A stretch of 63,859 nucleotides of DNA, filler included, from Collodictyon triciliatum (taxonomy: Eukaryota): the NCBI GenBank assembly GCA_043381765.1. It is 9 parts of 8 records of this genome, joined end to end, with 100 filler letters (N's around TTAATTAATTAA, not from the genome) between each part and the next. Parts side by side here need not be neighbours in the genome. Positions count along the whole stretch, not along the records: positions 62,255 to 63,859 come from JBHJMP010003336.1; 8 more parts are not named here. One strand, written 5' to 3'. Each line of letters begins with the position of its first letter. The first letter of the stretch is position 1. Shown piece after piece: positions 25,924 to 63,859 of the stretch. The notes beneath the pieces were generated by a model, which searched no databases, was not told the DNA's origin, and saw only the letters and a list, made by a program, of their open reading frames with translations. The position numbers were made by a program, and so were the translations under genes.

Positions 25924-27900
25924 CCCGAGGAAACTGCCTTCGCCTCTAGGACAAAAATGAGCTGTGGACGAGACAGTGGAAAACCTCGGATTGTGTGGCT
26001 GGAGTTTTTATGTTTTGTGTTTTGGAAGGAAATGAAAAAGAAAAAGAAAATAGAAAGGAGAGAAGTGTTCTCACACGCAGACTATTCTACCCGAGGGGAA
26101 TCAGCTCCAACGCGATTTCTGGTTGTATTCGAGACTGACAGAAGAGCGAATAAAGTTGTCGGGTCGATGAAAGTACGCACATGGCAGTTACTTCTCAAAT
26201 CGATTCCGACGAGTCCTATTCAACCGTTTATCTCAGACAAGGTTTACATCCTATTTCATTCCACACTAGATGAGTCTTTTGAAGAGACAACAGGTCACTT
26301 TCGTTGCGTTTCTTGCTGGGCGACTCAGACAAAAAGCGATGCATCGTTGTTTGTCTGGTATTATCGGAAGTGGCGCTTGAACGTCCCCTAGTTTCGGAAC
26401 CGTGCGTAGCCGGCAGTGGACTTTGCCTAACCGGAGTATGGTTACGTGTTCACGGTTTTAGAAACATACGCTCCTGCTTGCTCGGACTGTCTTAGGTGTG
26501 TGAAGTTCCAAGCTTGGATTCGTCTTGTGCTGTTTGCTCTTGCTCCTTGGTTCTCAGTGCGACGGGTTGGGGCAGGGTAAACGGACTATCTTTGGTGGGC
26601 GCTGGTTCCTGTGTTGCCTTCGATTTGGAGTATCCTTTCGGATAAGTAACGAAGACTGTCTTGAGGCCTCCTATGTTAACCACATTCACGTCAGTCTGAA
26701 TCGGTAGTTTAAGGGGGGATTTCTTTCGGGGTTTGGAGATGCGCTGCTCTTGGGTCTTGCGATGTGCGAGCTTGTCCGGTATTGGCGGTGGATGGGGCTT
26801 GAGTGCGAAGATTCTGAAGAGGAACCGAGATTTCCTTCCATGTCATCGTCGCTGTCGCTATATGCGCGTATCTTCTGTGAGTCTTGCGGGCTCAGTTGTT
26901 GCCTGGCCTTGTCTTCCTTGACCCCGTTGCTGCTTGTCTGCTTGGCAGTTGTATTCTTTTGCGGGGCTTTTACTTGTCGTTCGTTATTTGCGGCTGGCGG
27001 ACGCTCTTTGAGGATGCGCTTTGGATACTTTTTTCCCATGACCGTAAACTTTGCAGGGAGCTGGTTCTTGTGACAAAGAGGCTTCACCACGGCCGTGTCT
27101 GTGAAGAAGCCTTTCCTTTTTGATCCCCACGTGGGTCGGTCTGAACGGCTTCAGCTCCTGACGAAGGAGTTGCGGCCTCACGTCCAGCGGTAGTTGGTAG
27201 AGCATCGCCGAGGTCTCTGGTTCTTTACTTATGCTGAAGCTGCTCAAAATATCAATCAAACTTACTTGCTTCAGCCCCAGAAGCTTTCGGGCGTTTTCTG
27301 CAGCGTGGAAGGCGATCAGGCAAAGGCCTTCGCTGTTCGGTAAGCGCAACTGGATGGACTCTTCCCAAAGTTTGTCCGCTTTCAAAAAGGAGGCGAGCGC
27401 ATCTGTGAGCCTGCGGGCCGTGTTCTTGTTGTAAACGACTTGCTCGACCCCGTGCAAAAATACTGTCCGTTCAGACAAACTGGCAGGCGACTCCCTTGCA
27501 CAGATCTTCCTAGACTTACGTGCAACTCGGAGGTTTTCCGCGCCAGCGTTGGAACCAGAAAAACTGGCTGCAACTTGCAAAGCCTTCGACGAGTCACGAG
27601 TTTTCCGGAACTCCTACTTCCTTGGTGTGTTTTTCGACAGACTCGCTGGTGCTTATATCAAAAAGCGCAGTTCAGGTCACCGAGGCTGAGGATACAGTAG
27701 TACGGCTGCGACGTAGTTTCTGTCAAAACATCCACGGTTAGTTTGGGCCGCTTTGCTTTCTTCGTTCCGCCCACTCTCTCGCCGGCCCTTCTGTTCCGGA
27801 GTCAACCCCGCCGCATGTTGATTGGATCATTTGGGGCAACTCGAAGATCATAAAGCCGAGGGTGGCTCGATCGGAAATCAAGATGAATCTCTGCCCTTGA
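25924..27900 (-). mobile_element. Degenerate non-LTR retroelement, family B copy 1: L1/Tx1-type ORF1 (RRM-like) followed directly by the 3' end, with no RT
   Basis: Frameshifted ORF ...VFLHGVEQVVYNK...LYQLPLDVRPQLLRQELKPFRPTHV...FTDTAVVK..., closely duplicated at 57370-58110; 25924-26127 is duplicated at 50078-50285. The 5' boundary is approximate. Confidence 0.7.
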
Positions 27901-44721: not shown

Positions 44722-49093
<4,372 letters not shown>

Positions 49094-49258: not shown

Positions 49259-50545
49259 ATTTCACTCTTTATTTGATTCAAAGTGTAGCGAGGTTATGCC
49301 ATACACAGGGGCGGGATGGGAGCGCATGGGAGAGAGCAAACGCGAGTAGGGGAAGACACTACCGTGGAGAGGGTAGCACTGGAAAGAAATCAGTGATAGC
49401 GAGTCGGTCAGGTGTGCGTCCCAACTGATTGATTGATTGCGTGGGTAGCAGGGGTTGGATGTGCTGTGGGAGATATCGAACAACACATTCCCACATCTCT
49501 CTTCGCTTGCGGTCAGAGTAGCGAAGAATGCGGGCGTGTTTCAGCAGGCTGTTCAGAAAGCTGTATTGCACGAGGCTACCAAGCCTGGATACATTGATTT
49601 CTCGTTCGGGTGAATCATTAGAGTGAGAGAATGCACACACACTCCATAAGGAACACAGCATATGTCCCCTTGTGACTGTCCAGAGTATTCTAGAGTCGTG
49701 GGTCATTTTTTATTGTGCGCCAAACAGGATGTCGGATGCGTTGAGTCGGTTGGGAGCATAATCAAGCTCAGAGAGCATCTTGTGGGTAGACCCTGTCACT
49801 TTTTGAGCAAGAGAGCACTTCACAAATGTGTGTTCGATAGAGTCATCTCCACTATGGCACATGGTGCATTCTGGGGAGGTCGTTGCTGCGTGAACACACG
49901 CGCACCTATCCACAGCTCTGTGTTGGATATATAATGAGCAGCAGGGTGCGGTTATTGTGGACCGAAAATGATGTCAAGATACTTGAGTGGGTGTGACGGT
50001 GGCTTCTACACAATGTTTCCTGGAAACATAAGTCCATCCTGAAACCCGAAAAGAATTCCATCTTTCGTGTGGTAGTTACAACCAGAAATCGCGTTGGAGC
50101 TGATTCACCTCGGGTAGAATAGTCTGCGTGTGAGAACACTTTCACTCCTTTCTATTTTCTTTTTCTTTTTCTTATTCTTATTCTTTCCACCCAAAACACA
50201 AAATCTCCAACCACACAATCCGGGGTTTTCCACTGTCTTGTCCACAGCTCATTTCCTGTCCTAGAGGCGAAGGCGGTTTCCTCGGCTTTGTTTTCTCTCA
50301 ATAAACTGTTGAAAAGAAACCAAAAAAAAATCATCTTTCTTGTGGTAGTTGATTTTCCCGCCAACAGCTCGTGTGTATTCTTGCATGCATTTGTTGGCGA
50401 GTGTGGCACCTTTAGGAGACCGCAAGATGAATGCTGTGTCGCCTGCATATTGAAGTAGCAGTTGGTTGCGCACCTTGTTTTCGTTTCGGAAGTGGTTTGC
50501 AAGGCAGTCAGCGACAAAGTTGAAGAGCAGTGGTGCAAGTGGGCA
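49259..50545 (-). mobile_element. Degenerate L1/Tx1-type non-LTR retrotransposon (family A): RT C-terminal part, zf-RVT and 3' UTR; 5' part cut by the scaffold end
   Basis: LLQYAGDTAFIL...VGGKINYHK (YADD motif decayed to YAGD); zinc finger CTMCHSGDDSIEHTFVKC; ORF2 stop at 49359; 3' end ...CACTTTGAATCAAATAAAGAGTGAAA. Confidence 0.85.
50078..50331 (+). mobile_element. 5'-truncated family B retroposon nested antisense in the family A LINE
   Basis: Matches 25924-26127 (reverse complement); AATAAA at 50300 and A-rich tail; 19-bp TSD catctttcgtgtggtagtt (50059-50077) / catctttcttgtggtagtt (50332-50350). Confidence 0.85.
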
Positions 50546-53933: not shown

Positions 53934-56514
53934 TTTGTCTTTCCTTTTTTCTTTTGCTGCAGTTAAGTGGCACTTTCATTTCTTCGCTTTTACTGTCATT
54001 TTTTTTTCAAATCAAATTGCTTCAACACCAAATACTATCAGCAGTATTCTGTGCAAAATATTTCTCTTTTTCCGAGTCGCAATGATTGACACATCTGTCG
54101 TTTTGTTAATTACATAAGGAGCAGTCATTTACCGAGCACAGTGTAGAGTCATCAATGAAGAAGGCTCGATGCCCAACACAAGATAAACATCCATTTTTAG
54201 AATGTATATTAGAGCTTTTAAAATAACCGGTATCAAACGAATAAATACTTTTTCGAATAATTTCGATTCTATTATTCTTGAACTTTAATATTTTCTCACA
54301 AGAGCATATGATTACTTTTTTATCTGCTTGGCTAATATATACAAGTGATGCTTTGAGTTTATGGACCGATTTATAGACGCTGCAATATTCGGCCGCAGCG
54401 ATGAGCAACCGTTTCAAAAAGAAGCACAACATAATCTTAGCAACTGGAAACATGCATCGCATATCCGCATTCAGTCGACGTCATAAGCTGCGGAAGGTGG
54501 CGAGAAATAGGCACTTGTGCGTCGGGTATTGCGCTCCGAGACAAGAAGAAAGAAAAAAGCAATAAAATACTTATCTTGCATGAAGAGTGAAAGAAAACAG
54601 AAAAATTATATTCTCTTACATATCGATGATGAAAGATGTGCAGCAGATTGAATATTGGACGACATACTTTTCTCACTTTCATGGCAAAGAGAACCTTTGC
54701 AAGATGCACCGTGGCCATGCAAACAACATGCGTATGATGCTGGGAAATATCATCTAATCCAGTGCTTGGAAAAAATCGAATTAGCACGATTGAATTAAAG
54801 AGGTGTCTTGGATGATATAATTGCCGAGCATCTGACAAAACAGTTGGGCACTTGGAGATGAATAAATATCGACAGTTCAAGTAAGCCTCCCATTCTGATA
54901 GTTATATATTGATAGACAACTGCAGAATTACTTTTTAGAGGGTTCTGACGGCGATGGCGTTGTGTGGGTCGGGCATGTATCCACACTCGGCGTGTATGTC
55001 ACCATTGTTTGAACAAGAAAGACGATTTCATTCTTTTCCTGGTCGCTTTTTAAGTCATTTACACACAAAGTACCCAAATAATGGCTTCAAAGTTCTGTTT
55101 TTCTGGTCCAAAAAATCTATTACTCTTTATGTGCTTTATTTAAAGGTAGGATGTATATAGTCTTCGTACATGAAGGAATAATCAAAAGAGTTCCATTATA
55201 TACAAAGGCATTCGATGGTGTCCCTTTCATTCGGCTGAAAGACGGAAAATGCGCTGCAGATGGTGCGGTGGACATTTGCTACAATGCAAATTGTTTCTCC
55301 ACCAGTCAGTCGCGAGACCAACTGGGTAGGAATGCCTTTTTGGGTGATTTCTTTGTTGTACTGTCCATCACCTTCGCTAAATATGAATAAATAGGCATCG
55401 TTTTTATAATTGTTAGCTTTCAAAACCCTACCCCACCAACTTACATTGACCCTAAACCTTACATATAGAAAGAGAATATAAACCTTACAGCTTTATTATT
55501 TAGCAGCAGTATAGATAAAAGAAAATTATCTATGCTGCATAGAAACGAATATCATGCATCCGATATTGTAGGGCACTGGATTTCAAGAGACAGCTCATGG
55601 TTTACATCACTTTTTGTGTTGTAGTCTAATTGTGTTTGATAATCAACAGAGGATTTTCTCAAGGATTACTCATGTCAGCAAGAAAAAATGAATCAGGCAT
55701 TATGACCATGTTTGTTTCTTTTTCAAGTTCAGATTGTCTGCCTTTTTTCTTTTTGTTAAATTTGCCTAATTACTTGGATGATGATATCATTTTCATTCGT
55801 GCATGCAACAATCATGATTGGTAGTCTATTCATTGAGAAAACTAAACCGCTGCAGCATTTCCTATTTCTCCACTGGAAACAATAAGGTCAACTCGCTGAA
55901 GCTTTTCCCACTTAATTACAGTATCTTTATTGAATGCACAAAATATAATTCTGATCATATATTATCTACACCTATTTGGTTCTTTTGTGGATGTTTATAT
56001 CTCTTAAAAAATTATATGATTTTTCCTTTCGGGATTCTACCATTCTATCTCGCTTTATATTCCAGTGTTTTTTGATATTTTTCATGAACCGAAAAAAATA
56101 TAAAAGAAACAGGTGTTCCACGACTCGAATTTGTTTAGAATCTAGCAACAGACAACAAAAAAAACCAGAATAGTAACGATGTTATTATCAAGTAAGTAAA
56201 CGGACGAACTAATTGATGGGTTTTCAAAATATTCGAAAGAAGCTGACTTTGCAGTAAGGACAAGCGTAATTGACAAACTGACTCATTTCTCTATCACAGT
56301 TGAATATGCTGATTGTGCACAAAGAATAATATCGTTTGAATTTTTTTTGTTCGTTGTTCATCCTGTGTGTGCCAGAAAAGAAACCATGATGTAGTTCATC
56401 ATCATTTTTTTGTGCATCATATATACTTCATTGCACATTGCGATATGTGCTTTCGCGAGAAATAAAATATCTTAAGGCAAGAGATTTTGAAAATCCGAAT
56501 CAAAAAATATACTT

Positions 56515-56577
56515 TATTCCCCTTTATTCGATTCAAAGTGCAGCGAGGTTGTGCCATACAAAGGGGCGAGGTAGATG
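56515..56577 (-). mobile_element. Micro-insertion of the LINE family A 3' terminus (63 nt)
   Basis: ctttattcgattcaaagtgcagcgaggttgtgccatacaaaggggcg closely matches 49267-49313; 19-bp TSD cgaatcaaaaaatatactt (56496-56514) / cgaatcaaaaaatagactt (56578-56596). Confidence 0.85.
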
Positions 56578-57288
56578 CGAATCAAAAAATAGACTTAAAA
56601 AACGAAAACAATTGAAATTATTAATAAAACCTAGAACTGCTTACCAAATACTCATCAAAATGTCGAATTCGTCACTGACGAGTGCCTCACTGACAGAAAC
56701 AAGAAAATTGTGCCCAACCAGTCTGTGAGTATGAAAATGTAAAATAGTTGAATACAATGGAGAATGAAAATGATACACAAGTATTTGTTTAAACCTATAT
56801 GGGAATGAATCACAAGAGTGACATAAGCAGCGTAATTCTCAATCAAAATAATTGTACCTTGTCATCTGGAACTCTTTTTGTAGACCAATGTGATTATTTT
56901 CAGGAAAAAGAACGAAGCATTCAACTCTGCTTCTTCCATTAAACCTACTCATAGCAGCGCCGCCTGATTATATTTGGGTATATTGCATGGAATTAGCAGG
57001 AATCCATCCATAAAACTACAGACTACAAAAAGCGCACTCATATTTCCTATTCAACCAAGCAAACTTCATATATCTCCAGAGGCTGCAGTCACTATGGTCA
57101 CAGTCTTTCGAGTTGTTATGTAGAAAATATTCCTATTCTCCCAAGAAACTGCATCGACAAATTCTTTAATTGATGGAGTTCATAACCTACACAGATTAAC
57201 AAGACTACTTGATAATATCAATATTAGATATTATTGAGGTATGTTTTCTTTGGTTGAATCTTCAAGTTACATTACTGAAGACCTTGAG

Positions 57289-62154: not shown

Positions 62155-62630
62155 NNNNNNNNNNNNNNNNNNNNNNNNNNNNNNNNNNNNNNNNNNNNTT
62201 AATTAATTAANNNNNNNNNNNNNNNNNNNNNNNNNNNNNNNNNNNNNNNNNNNNTTTTTCTCCTCCCTCTTCCGCTCCCCCCCCTCCCTTCTTCCCTTCT
62301 CCCCCCCCCCCCCCCCCCCCCCCCCTCTCTTTCTCTCTTTATCTTTAAAAATGAATATATTTCAGCGGAAATTTTGTATTTAATTCACTATACTTTTTCC
62401 TTTATTTATTTAATTCAATATCTTATAAGTCCCGTATCGATAAGATAATACATTCACTTTTATTATGGTGACCCCAAGAAGAAGAAACAAAATAAAATAA
62501 AAGAAAGGATACTGCAATTTATGTTGCATTCTTTTTCATTTTTGTATGTTTCTTTTTCGTTTATTGCTATTCTTTATTTGAATTTAACATCGATATTTTG
62601 GTAAATGGGTGCATCCGTTGAAATAAATAG

Positions 62631-63312
62631 GTGCTGGATAAAGATAGACCACGAGATATACCGCTTCGTTTTCTTGTATGTGCCTCTTGTCATCTCGCTA
62701 ACTGCAAACATAATTCTTTACCTATCTGCCTATAGACACTTGAACAGTTTGAAGGTAAGTGGACTCCTAACTTGAAGAAAACTTTACATCCACACATATA
62801 ACCCCACTTATCCGTTCATAATTTCTTTTCAAAAAATTTATCTTCATATAATCCAGTCAAACATTTCTTTTTATTTCTTTTTTATTGGTTTTTTTTTTTA
62901 GAAAGAACACGAATCCGTTGGCGGTAAAGGAACATACCTTGTCGTACAATTTAGAAAGAAATTGTCCAAACGACTCATGCGTGTAGTTGTTGCCTTTGTC
63001 TGTTGTTGGTTTTGGCCGACAGTAAACCGGGTGCAAAATTGGATACAGCCTGATAATCCCCAAGTACTACATCATCACCTACTCTACATACCAAGTATCA
63101 TATTAGTCCTTATACTTGTCATTTATATTAAACGTGCTTCTTTTTTAATGAGCTCGGGAGGGTATTTCAAGTGTATATCGGTAACCTTAGATTAATATCA
63201 AACAAATATCCTTAGTTTTGGTTATTCTGTTTGCATGCAATATCCGCTCCATCATTTGGATTTGCGATTAGCCTTGTGTATGGGACAAGCAAAAAAGTGA
63301 AAAAACAGTTTA
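62631..63312 (+). CDS. GCR1 / Dictyostelium cAMP-receptor-like 7TM protein, TM5-TM7 part
   Basis: Exons CWIKIDHEIYRFVFLYVPLVI... / KLSKRLMRVVVAFVCCWFWPTVNRVQNWIQP / FWLFCLHAISAPSFGFAISLVYG follow the CAR/GCR1 pattern (CWI..., F..CW...NR, G...S.VYG). Confidence 0.75.
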
Positions 63313-63486
63313 GGTAAGTAAAAAAACAAAACAAAAAAAACACTGATACGCTTTCTCATCATCTGATTACGTTACTTTTTTAAGTAATGTATCAAACAAG
63401 TAATAAAGGGGGACCCCCAATAATTTTGCATATAATCTCCATGTTTCGGGAGTAATTTTAAATCACTTAAACCTCACATCATCAGC

Positions 63487-63545
63487 CCTTTTTCCTTTTA
63501 TTCGATTCAAGAGAGGAAAAGGGTTTCATATATTTTACAGTCCGA
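63487..63545 (-). mobile_element. Micro-insertion of a LINE family A-type 3' terminus (59 nt)
   Basis: Contains tttattcgattcaag; flanks tcacatcatcagc (63474-63486) / tcacatcagc (63546-63555) form an imperfect TSD. Confidence 0.55.
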
Positions 63546-63687
63546 TCACATCAGCTTTTAAACTTTCCCCTCTTTAATAGAGCCTTGGTCAGGTCTCGCT
63601 TAAGTGCCAGCTTTACCGGGGTAAATTATTCAGTGATTATTATTATTTACTAAATTGACCTGTAGCTCGAATTTAACAAGAAGTATC

Positions 63688-63772
63688 CTTTGAATCGAAT
63701 AAAGGAAAAAACAAAAAGAAGTATCAGTAATAATAGTAATACGATGTATCTTAGAATCGAATAAAGGAAAAA
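63688..63772 (+). mobile_element. Two adjacent micro-insertions (63688-63715 and 63750-63772) of the LINE family A 3' terminus
   Basis: ctttgaatcgaataaaggaaaaaacaa between aagaagtatc copies (63678-63687, 63716-63725); cttagaatcgaataaaggaaaaa between aatagtaatacgatgtat (63732-63749) and aatagtaatcgatgtat (63773-63789). Confidence 0.75.
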
Positions 63773-63859
63773 AATAGTAATCGATGTATAACAAAAAACA
63801 AAAAACAAAAAACAAAAAACAAAAAACAAAAAACAAAAAACAAAAAAACAAAAAAAACA

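Follow-up and report, generated by a model that had tools for sequence, protein, structure and literature searches.

Probable ultra-short insertions of an L1-like LINE 3' terminus in a 63.9-kb sample of the Collodictyon triciliatum genome

Abstract

We find that the 3' terminus of an L1-superfamily LINE recurs in DNA of the eukaryote Collodictyon triciliatum as tags of 19-68 nt. We consider it likely, with a probability of roughly 0.7, that these tags are genuine insertions by target-primed reverse transcription (TPRT) from that terminus and that the ultra-short product predominates in this sample.

Results

Composition of the window

The window, that is, the whole stretch of DNA analysed (63,859 nt, assembly GCA_043381765.1), is one 63.9-kb sample in which about ten short scaffolds are joined through N44-TTAATTAATTAA-N44 spacers, with 2126 N in total. 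The scaffolds measure 1.6-9 kb and end mostly in microsatellites, LINE or gaps, and the six tags that an earlier note on this DNA had listed are spread over 4 of the ~10. Any density estimated from such short, repeat-bounded scaffolds comes from an unfair sample in which long young LINE copies are under-represented, and extrapolation from it is barred. The ORFs in the window include fragments of dynein heavy chain, LRR, protein kinase and CCDC24 sequences, and the single Rfam match at the gathering threshold is a tRNA gene (34598-34679, minus strand, 66 bits). DNA of the scaffold between 62387 and 63488 also turns up in freshwater metagenome samples: compared with runs from three studies, positions 62255-63859 are matched by low-depth pieces with 0-2 differences, in addition to T-run noise. 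None of these pieces covers 63551-63859, and neither joints nor gaps appear among them. The coordinates of all features are collected in Table 1.

Table 1. Source LINE, tags, flanking repeats and metagenome matches, in window coordinates; p refers to the complexity-filtered control sites.
Feature	Position	Strand	Sequence or remark	p
Source LINE, 3' part	49259-50545	-	RT C-terminal part, CCHC zinc knuckle, C-terminal domain, ~95-nt 3' UTR	
Tag, 28 nt	63688-63715	+	CTTTGAATCGAATAAAGG, then A-rich tail	0.012
TSD of 63688 tag	63678-63687 and 63716-63725		AAGAAGTATC, 10/10	
Tag, 23 nt	63750-63772	+	CTTAGAATCGAATAAAGG+A5	0.001
TSD of 63750 tag	63732-63749 and 63773-63789		17/18, one indel	
Tag, 30 nt, CA variant	30995-31024	-	tail GGGTGAAGTGAAGA, not poly(A)	0.002
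TSD of 30995 tag	31025-31039 and 30981-30994		14/15	
Tag, 63-68 nt	56510-56577	-		0.0002
TSD of 56510 tag	56578-56591 and 56496-56509		TATTTTTTGATTCG, 14/14	
Tag, 59 nt	63487-63545	-	second 3'-UTR type upstream, same terminal motif	0.123
TSD of 63487 tag	63546-63555 and 63474-63486		GCTGATGTGA vs GCTGATGATGTGA, 10 vs 13 nt, 3-nt indel	
Tag, ~50 nt	37884-37933	+		0.123
Repeat around 37884 tag	37864-37883 and 37934-37951		imperfect repeat only	
Probable mini-tag, ~8 nt of LINE sequence	62388-62406	-	AATAAAGG+A5 (+GTATAG); absent from the earlier list	
Repeat around mini-tag	62407-62417 and 62377-62387		TGAATTAAATA, 11/11	
A-tailed insert, 44 nt, second tail family	36261-36304	-	TTGAAAGGAAGAATAAA+A7	
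TSD of 36261 insert	36305-36321 and 36244-36260		perfect, 17/17	
Candidate second copy of the same tail	48797-48819	+	TTGAAAGGAAGAATAAA+A9, 23/23 identical to 36259-36281, no delimited TSD	
Metagenome piece	62387-62765		0-2 differences	
Metagenome piece	62930-63115		0-2 differences	
Metagenome piece	63095-63245		0-2 differences	
Metagenome piece	63346-63488		0-2 differences	

Recurrence of the terminal motif

Within the window, TTGAATCRAATAAA with at most one mismatch occurs 8 times, compared with 0.34 ± 0.59 expected, and none of 100 shuffles reaches 8. The 17-mer CTTTGAATCRAATAAAG, with up to three mismatches, gives nine matches against 1.5 expected; seven are real, and the two with three mismatches (at 12450 and 21738) look like chance. 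The motif had been reported at six places and at the end of a LINE, and upon checking the coordinates it was present at all of them. Each tag carries AATAAA.

The CpG of the motif (TCGAAT) is replaced by CA at 31016 and 49275 (TCAAAT) and by TA at 62405-62418 (TTAAAT). These variants could reflect CpG decay or could be subfamily markers, the latter being favoured because both CA copies have GTGAA-type tails in common.

The 14-mer TTGAATCRAATAAA was found in 0 papers in the literature. In public metagenomes the 18-mer occurs at 106 loci, of which L033 alone is the LINE; the remaining 105 were rejected as unrelated, their context being mostly microbial-looking, as were all 12 occurrences in two bacterial MAG loci and ten viral contigs.

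The source LINE

By its sequence, the source element is an L1-superfamily LINE, with an APE-RT-zf-RVT layout that is read from its relatives. The copy in the window, truncated by the end of its scaffold and degraded by frameshifts and stops, has a 3' UTR terminating in CTTTGAATCAAATAAAG. Pfam RVT_1 matches a 94-aa remnant at E=5.2e-5 (23.5 bits, under the gathering cut-off of 29.6) and zf-RVT matches the LINE at E=1.5e-4 (22.8 bits, under the cut-off of 27.5), a CX2CX7HX4C pattern can be read within the ORF at 49710-49973, and the best match to the RT among solved structures is human L1 ORF2p (E=0.002-0.006). In public assemblies, two RT fragments (P0001, P0002) are 76-78% identical to the LINE and carry PF00078, and the relatives of one of these fragments are ORF2 proteins of 1100-1300 aa with PF03372 (APE), PF00078 and PF13966, those with names coming from lizards, a killifish and green algae. 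PF03372 is found in many full-length relatives of the same RT (for example P0003, P0005, P0007 and P0009); the copy in the window shows no APE domain because its 5' part lies off the scaffold.

The claim that the motif is the 3' terminus of this RT- and CCHC-bearing element was upheld. The metagenome locus L033, which is 94.5% identical (584/618) to the last 618 nt of the LINE, ends in the motif plus GG (CTTTGAATCGAATAAAGG) followed by A10, and the motif is thus the true 3' terminus, with the A tail after it.

Within the RT region of the LINE, in the opposite orientation, lies a nested poly(A) retroposon of 255 nt (50077-50331, plus strand), which ends in CTCAATAAACTGTTGAAAAGAAACC+A9 and is flanked by an 18-bp target-site duplication (TSD; 50059-50076 and 50332-50349, 17/18). 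A second, partial copy at 25925-26127 is 89% identical over ~210 nt and has another 3' end. The nested copy and its 18-bp TSD indicate that such retroposition operates in this genome.

Flanking repeats and their significance

Flanks were scored by the best local alignment between the 80 nt upstream and the 50 nt downstream of the motif. Against 3000 unfiltered random sites, a control that is inflated by microsatellites, the six tags obtain p = 0.040, 0.196, 0.029, 0.196, 0.060 and 0.034. Against 4000 complexity-filtered sites (from 10376 tries) the p-values are those of Table 1, with a Fisher combination of 2.2e-8; the filter (complexity >=0.8) is stricter than some of the real flanks (0.51-0.89), which makes this control a little lenient, and the true significance falls between the two. 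The tags had been claimed to sit each between its own direct repeats, and as a set they do so better than the 4000 random sites, two of the six being weak (p = 0.12 each). The TSDs are of variable length (10/10, 17/18, 14/14, 14/15, 11/11 and 17/17, with two more weak). In three tags the repeat directly adjoins the first base of CTTTG, a combination of abutting with a score of at least 10 that is found in 0.075% of the controls. The LINE copy itself has no flanking repeat (p = 0.82), as expected with its 5' end off the scaffold.

When the window was scanned generically for inserts with an A tail that lie between exact repeats of 10 nt or more, 3 were returned, compared with 1.5 ± 1.3 in local shuffles, which is not significant; the scan recovered 63688, 36261 and 44898, and the count of TPRT-consistent against mirror arrangements was 4 vs 2. 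Exact repeats of at least 12 nt were enriched, at 8 (2.9 ± 1.6 in local shuffles), and those of at least 10 nt 25 (16.4 ± 3.9). Read by eye, a nick between T-rich and A-rich DNA fits the target sites in only ~5 of 10 cases.

These results bear on the possibility that no retroposition took place and that the tags are motifs and repeats that match by chance, products of local duplication, or LINE cDNA that was captured without an endonuclease at double-strand breaks. AT-rich low-complexity DNA is indeed rich in short repeats, as the shuffled counts at 10 nt illustrate, and two tags have weak repeats; nonetheless chance would have to produce 8 motifs where 0.34 are expected, a combined flank test of p = 2e-8 and repeats that adjoin the tags exactly. 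The tag flanks are otherwise unique within the window, TRF shows no array over the neighbouring tags 63688 and 63750, so that tandem duplication was rejected as their origin, and capture at breaks would leave no TSD. We regard this explanation as scarcely credible.

Individual tags

The tag at 63688 has the tail GGAAAAAACAAA. An (AACAAAA)n microsatellite of 9.3 units (63790-63855) begins 17 nt past the tag at 63750, and such an array may be linked to A-rich LINE tails or A-rich nick sites. The tag at 56510 is colinear with the LINE 3' UTR over 47 nt (56522-56568, 91.5% identity). A second copy of the 63487 type, 40 nt with 4 differences, occurs in a freshwater-metagenome contig. The tag at 37884, which opens with CTGTA like the 63487 type and is without an A tail, contains an A12 run that separates an unrelated-looking 5' part from the terminal motif. 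Such a tag could have arisen as a template-switch chimera, or else as the copy of a transcript reading through an older tag.

A further insert at 62388-62406, which contains one of the mere three occurrences of the 13-mer AATAAAGGAAAAA that the window has, is probably a seventh tag, truncated within the motif. Its flank test, in the motif-anchored geometry with unfiltered controls, is not significant (p=0.40), and its repeat resembles the motif, which makes homology-guided joining possible.

A second family of A-tailed inserts

The tail TTGAAAGGAAGAATAAA defines a second tail family with the same ultra-short habit (Table 1). A search of the window found 2 exact matches, and 5 with at most three mismatches against 1.15 expected. 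A T13 run stands directly before the TTGAAAGGAAGAATAAA+A9 tag (48784-48819). An insert of 31 nt at 44898-44928 (minus strand), ending in GGGACAATAAA+A9 between 10-nt exact repeats ATGTAAGATA, may be another micro-retrocopy, 10-nt repeats being expected by chance; it was set aside as too weak to be counted, as was 47705-47791, with a 10-nt repeat and no A tail.

Length distribution

The inserts of the six listed tags measure 23, 28, 30, ~50, 59 and 63-68 nt. Including the mini-tag the range is ~19-68 nt, with 8-57 nt of LINE sequence retained. When both tail families are taken together, 8 of the 9 delimited copies in the window are at most 68 nt long and one is at least 1.29 kb; a self-BLAST of the window with the 1.3-kb LINE found no copy between these lengths. 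Tiny copies dominate within the window.

This dominance could be the short end of a smooth distribution produced by ordinary 5' truncation, with scaffolds that exclude long copies and annotation that discards short ones. An assembly of this sort would be broken by LINE copies that are long and young, and ascertainment may therefore account for part of the surplus of tiny copies; the scaffolds are of 1.6-9 kb, bounded by microsatellites, LINE or gaps, and the sole long LINE copy runs into the end of its own. The lengths are spread out between 19 and 68 nt, one copy is cut within the motif, and short human retrocopies with ~15-bp TSDs are known (PMC2831318). Against this stand the empty interval between 68 nt and 1.29 kb that follows eight copies of nine, the 5' base common to three copies with microhomology at 0 of 4 junctions, and an average of ~900 bp for truncated human L1 (PMC2837659). 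On balance, we consider ordinary truncation unlikely as the full explanation.

5' ends, tails and upstream sequences

The tags at 63688, 63750 and 30995 have unrelated TSDs and begin at the identical base, the C of CTTTG, and suffix searches of the window found no tag that starts between this C and AATAAA. The three-way coincidence was noticed post hoc and has, by our own arithmetic, P ~ 0.01 if 5' ends are spread uniformly or geometrically across ~60 positions. The mini-tag, being cut within the motif, indicates that the CTTTG start is no absolute boundary. Microhomology was absent from all 4 of the LINE-mappable 5' junctions (read by eye), with no base assignable to both TSD and LINE. The tails are GG+A5-6 in the CG-variant tags and GTGAA-like in two CA-variant copies.

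The upstream part of the tags at 63487 and 37884 differs from the LINE 3' UTR and begins near CTGTA in both, which points to several 3'-UTR subtypes with only the ~17-nt terminal motif in common. Tag RNAs have predicted folds of 0 to -0.8 kcal/mol and the 104-nt LINE end a z of -1.3, without a stable stem-loop. A hairpin with a CTTT/AAAG stem, at the base of which the RT would stop, was excluded as the cause of the cut because there is no stable fold.

The three identical 5' ends also suit a dedicated non-autonomous micro-element, with units of ~25 and ~55 nt that have masters of their own, for example transcribed tags ended by their own AATAAA, and that are copied in trans by the LINE via the terminal motif. 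The shared start of 63487 and 37884 near CTGTA, almost the place where the metagenome copy loses similarity, and the joining of one terminal motif to differing upstream sequences would fit it as well. A unit of 23-30 nt, however, is too small for a promoter, and the tags lack the head with an internal pol III promoter by which SINEs are recognised: at the Rfam gathering threshold, no tRNA-, 5S- or 7SL-like head was found at any tag. The near absence of predicted structure, the colinearity of the 56510 tag with the LINE 3' UTR and the non-uniform lengths likewise speak against such an element, which we judge highly improbable.

Discussion

The presence of the LINE 3' end and its tail between variable TSDs indicates TPRT with extreme 5' truncation, and TSD lengths of 10-18 bp suit APE-type TPRT and do not suit DNA transposons. 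The earlier note had attributed the tags to the insertion of LINE 3' ends by a TSD-generating mechanism of the APE/L1 type, and the motif, the TSDs, the RT- and CCHC-bearing LINE and L033 all bear this out. In the proposed course of events, the LINE RNA would terminate in ...CTTTGAATCGAATAAAGG(A)n, the element's endonuclease would nick the target, and cDNA synthesis would begin in the A-rich tail. Of the LINE sequence no more than 8-57 nt reach the genome, and staggered cleavage of the second strand would leave the 10-18-bp duplication. Several 3'-UTR subtypes and the second tail family take the same route.

The earlier note had left open whether the LINE aborts after tens of nucleotides or mobilises a tiny 3'-end RNA. 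The 5' base shared by three tags and the lack of microhomology at four junctions favour the tiny RNA, the preference being tempered by the small sample and by the one copy (62388-62406) cut within the motif. The recurrence of one 5' base together with the lack of microhomology looks like run-off at the 5' end of an RNA, which favours short 3'-terminal RNA templates and suggests that these fit better than a random stop on a long RNA. That the template is usually already a short 3'-terminal RNA fragment, held by the RT via its tail and copied to its 5' end, seems to us slightly less than an even bet; early abortion followed by end-joining is a possible but somewhat doubtful course. We also entertain, as a rather remote conjecture, a more specific version in which cleavage of the LINE RNA would occur at one fixed position immediately upstream of CUUUGAAUCGAAUAAAGG(A)n and the stub would remain competent for TPRT, such that most attempts would leave a 20-60-nt 'tombstone' with a TSD. 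The cutter might then be a host nuclease, a small-RNA-guided slicer, or trimming outside the RT footprint on the tail.

If the bias holds genome-wide, this L1-like element would nearly always leave a scar of 20-70 nt in place of a copy that can be recognised. Annotating repeats under the customary length cut-offs would then overlook the greater part of its activity, rates of retrotransposition and mechanisms of truncation would be estimated with a skew, and sense-oriented AATAAA hexamers would have been scattered by the thousand through introns and flanking DNA. A 5' end that is fixed and lacks microhomology would offer a natural handle on whether LINE truncation comes about by RNA cutting or by poor cDNA completion, and if the fixed cut is real, tens of thousands of unannotated AATAAA tags would form a countable record of defeated retrotransposition. 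If the bias fails genome-wide, the finding would amount to the usual short tail of 5' truncation, seen in a sample rich in repeats. Our literature search, whose coverage is light on subscription journals and excludes supplements, returned no report of 20-70-nt LINE insertions as a class or as a main product, which is weak evidence.

Among known systems, stringent-type LINEs of the L2/UnaL2 type need a 3' stem-loop. The tags resemble them in that a ~17-nt terminal sequence is kept across differing 3' UTRs, a conservation that suggests a requirement of the RT, and in one tail of the form (GTGAA)2; they differ from them in having no stable predicted structure, a mostly A-rich tail and an L1-like protein. 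SINEs and other non-autonomous elements may borrow the 3' tail of a LINE, as do the Drosophila suffix element and the tail-sharing tRNA-SINEs. Like these, the tags are short units that carry the terminal sequence of a partner LINE and would be mobilised by it; unlike them, they are without a promoter-bearing head, ten times shorter and non-uniform in length.

The T13 run before the tail tag and A9 at 48784-48819 recalls the poly(T)-headed truncated L1 copies ascribed to twin or dual priming in PMC2837659, where the loci span 99-4697 bp, whereas ours is a single locus without a delimited TSD. Short processed pseudogenes derived from mRNA are likewise recognised by poly(A) and ~15-bp TSDs and missed by standard annotation, and Terai et al. 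2010 proposed for such short human retrocopies that truncation of the RNA either precedes or accompanies its reverse transcription (PMC2831318). Those copies, whose source is cellular mRNAs, are <=300 bp (median of the new ones 356 bp; PMC2831318), whereas the tags measure 19-68 nt and have the LINE's own tail as their source.

The closest likeness is to 5'-truncated L1. The tags derive from the element's 3' end, carry an A-rich tail and lie between variable 10-18-bp TSDs, and the RT relatives of the LINE have the APE+RT+zf-RVT layout, with human ORF2p as the nearest solved structure. Truncated human L1 copies average ~900 bp (PMC2837659), whereas 8 of 9 copies here measure 19-68 nt. About 80% of 5'-truncated human L1 copies have junction microhomology, full-length copies being at chance level (PMC2912911), whereas the tags have it at 0 of 4 junctions and three share a 5' base. 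Overall, the kind of insertion is known, namely 5'-truncated L1-type insertion by the ordinary mechanism, the unusual feature being the extreme shortness of almost all copies in this small sample.
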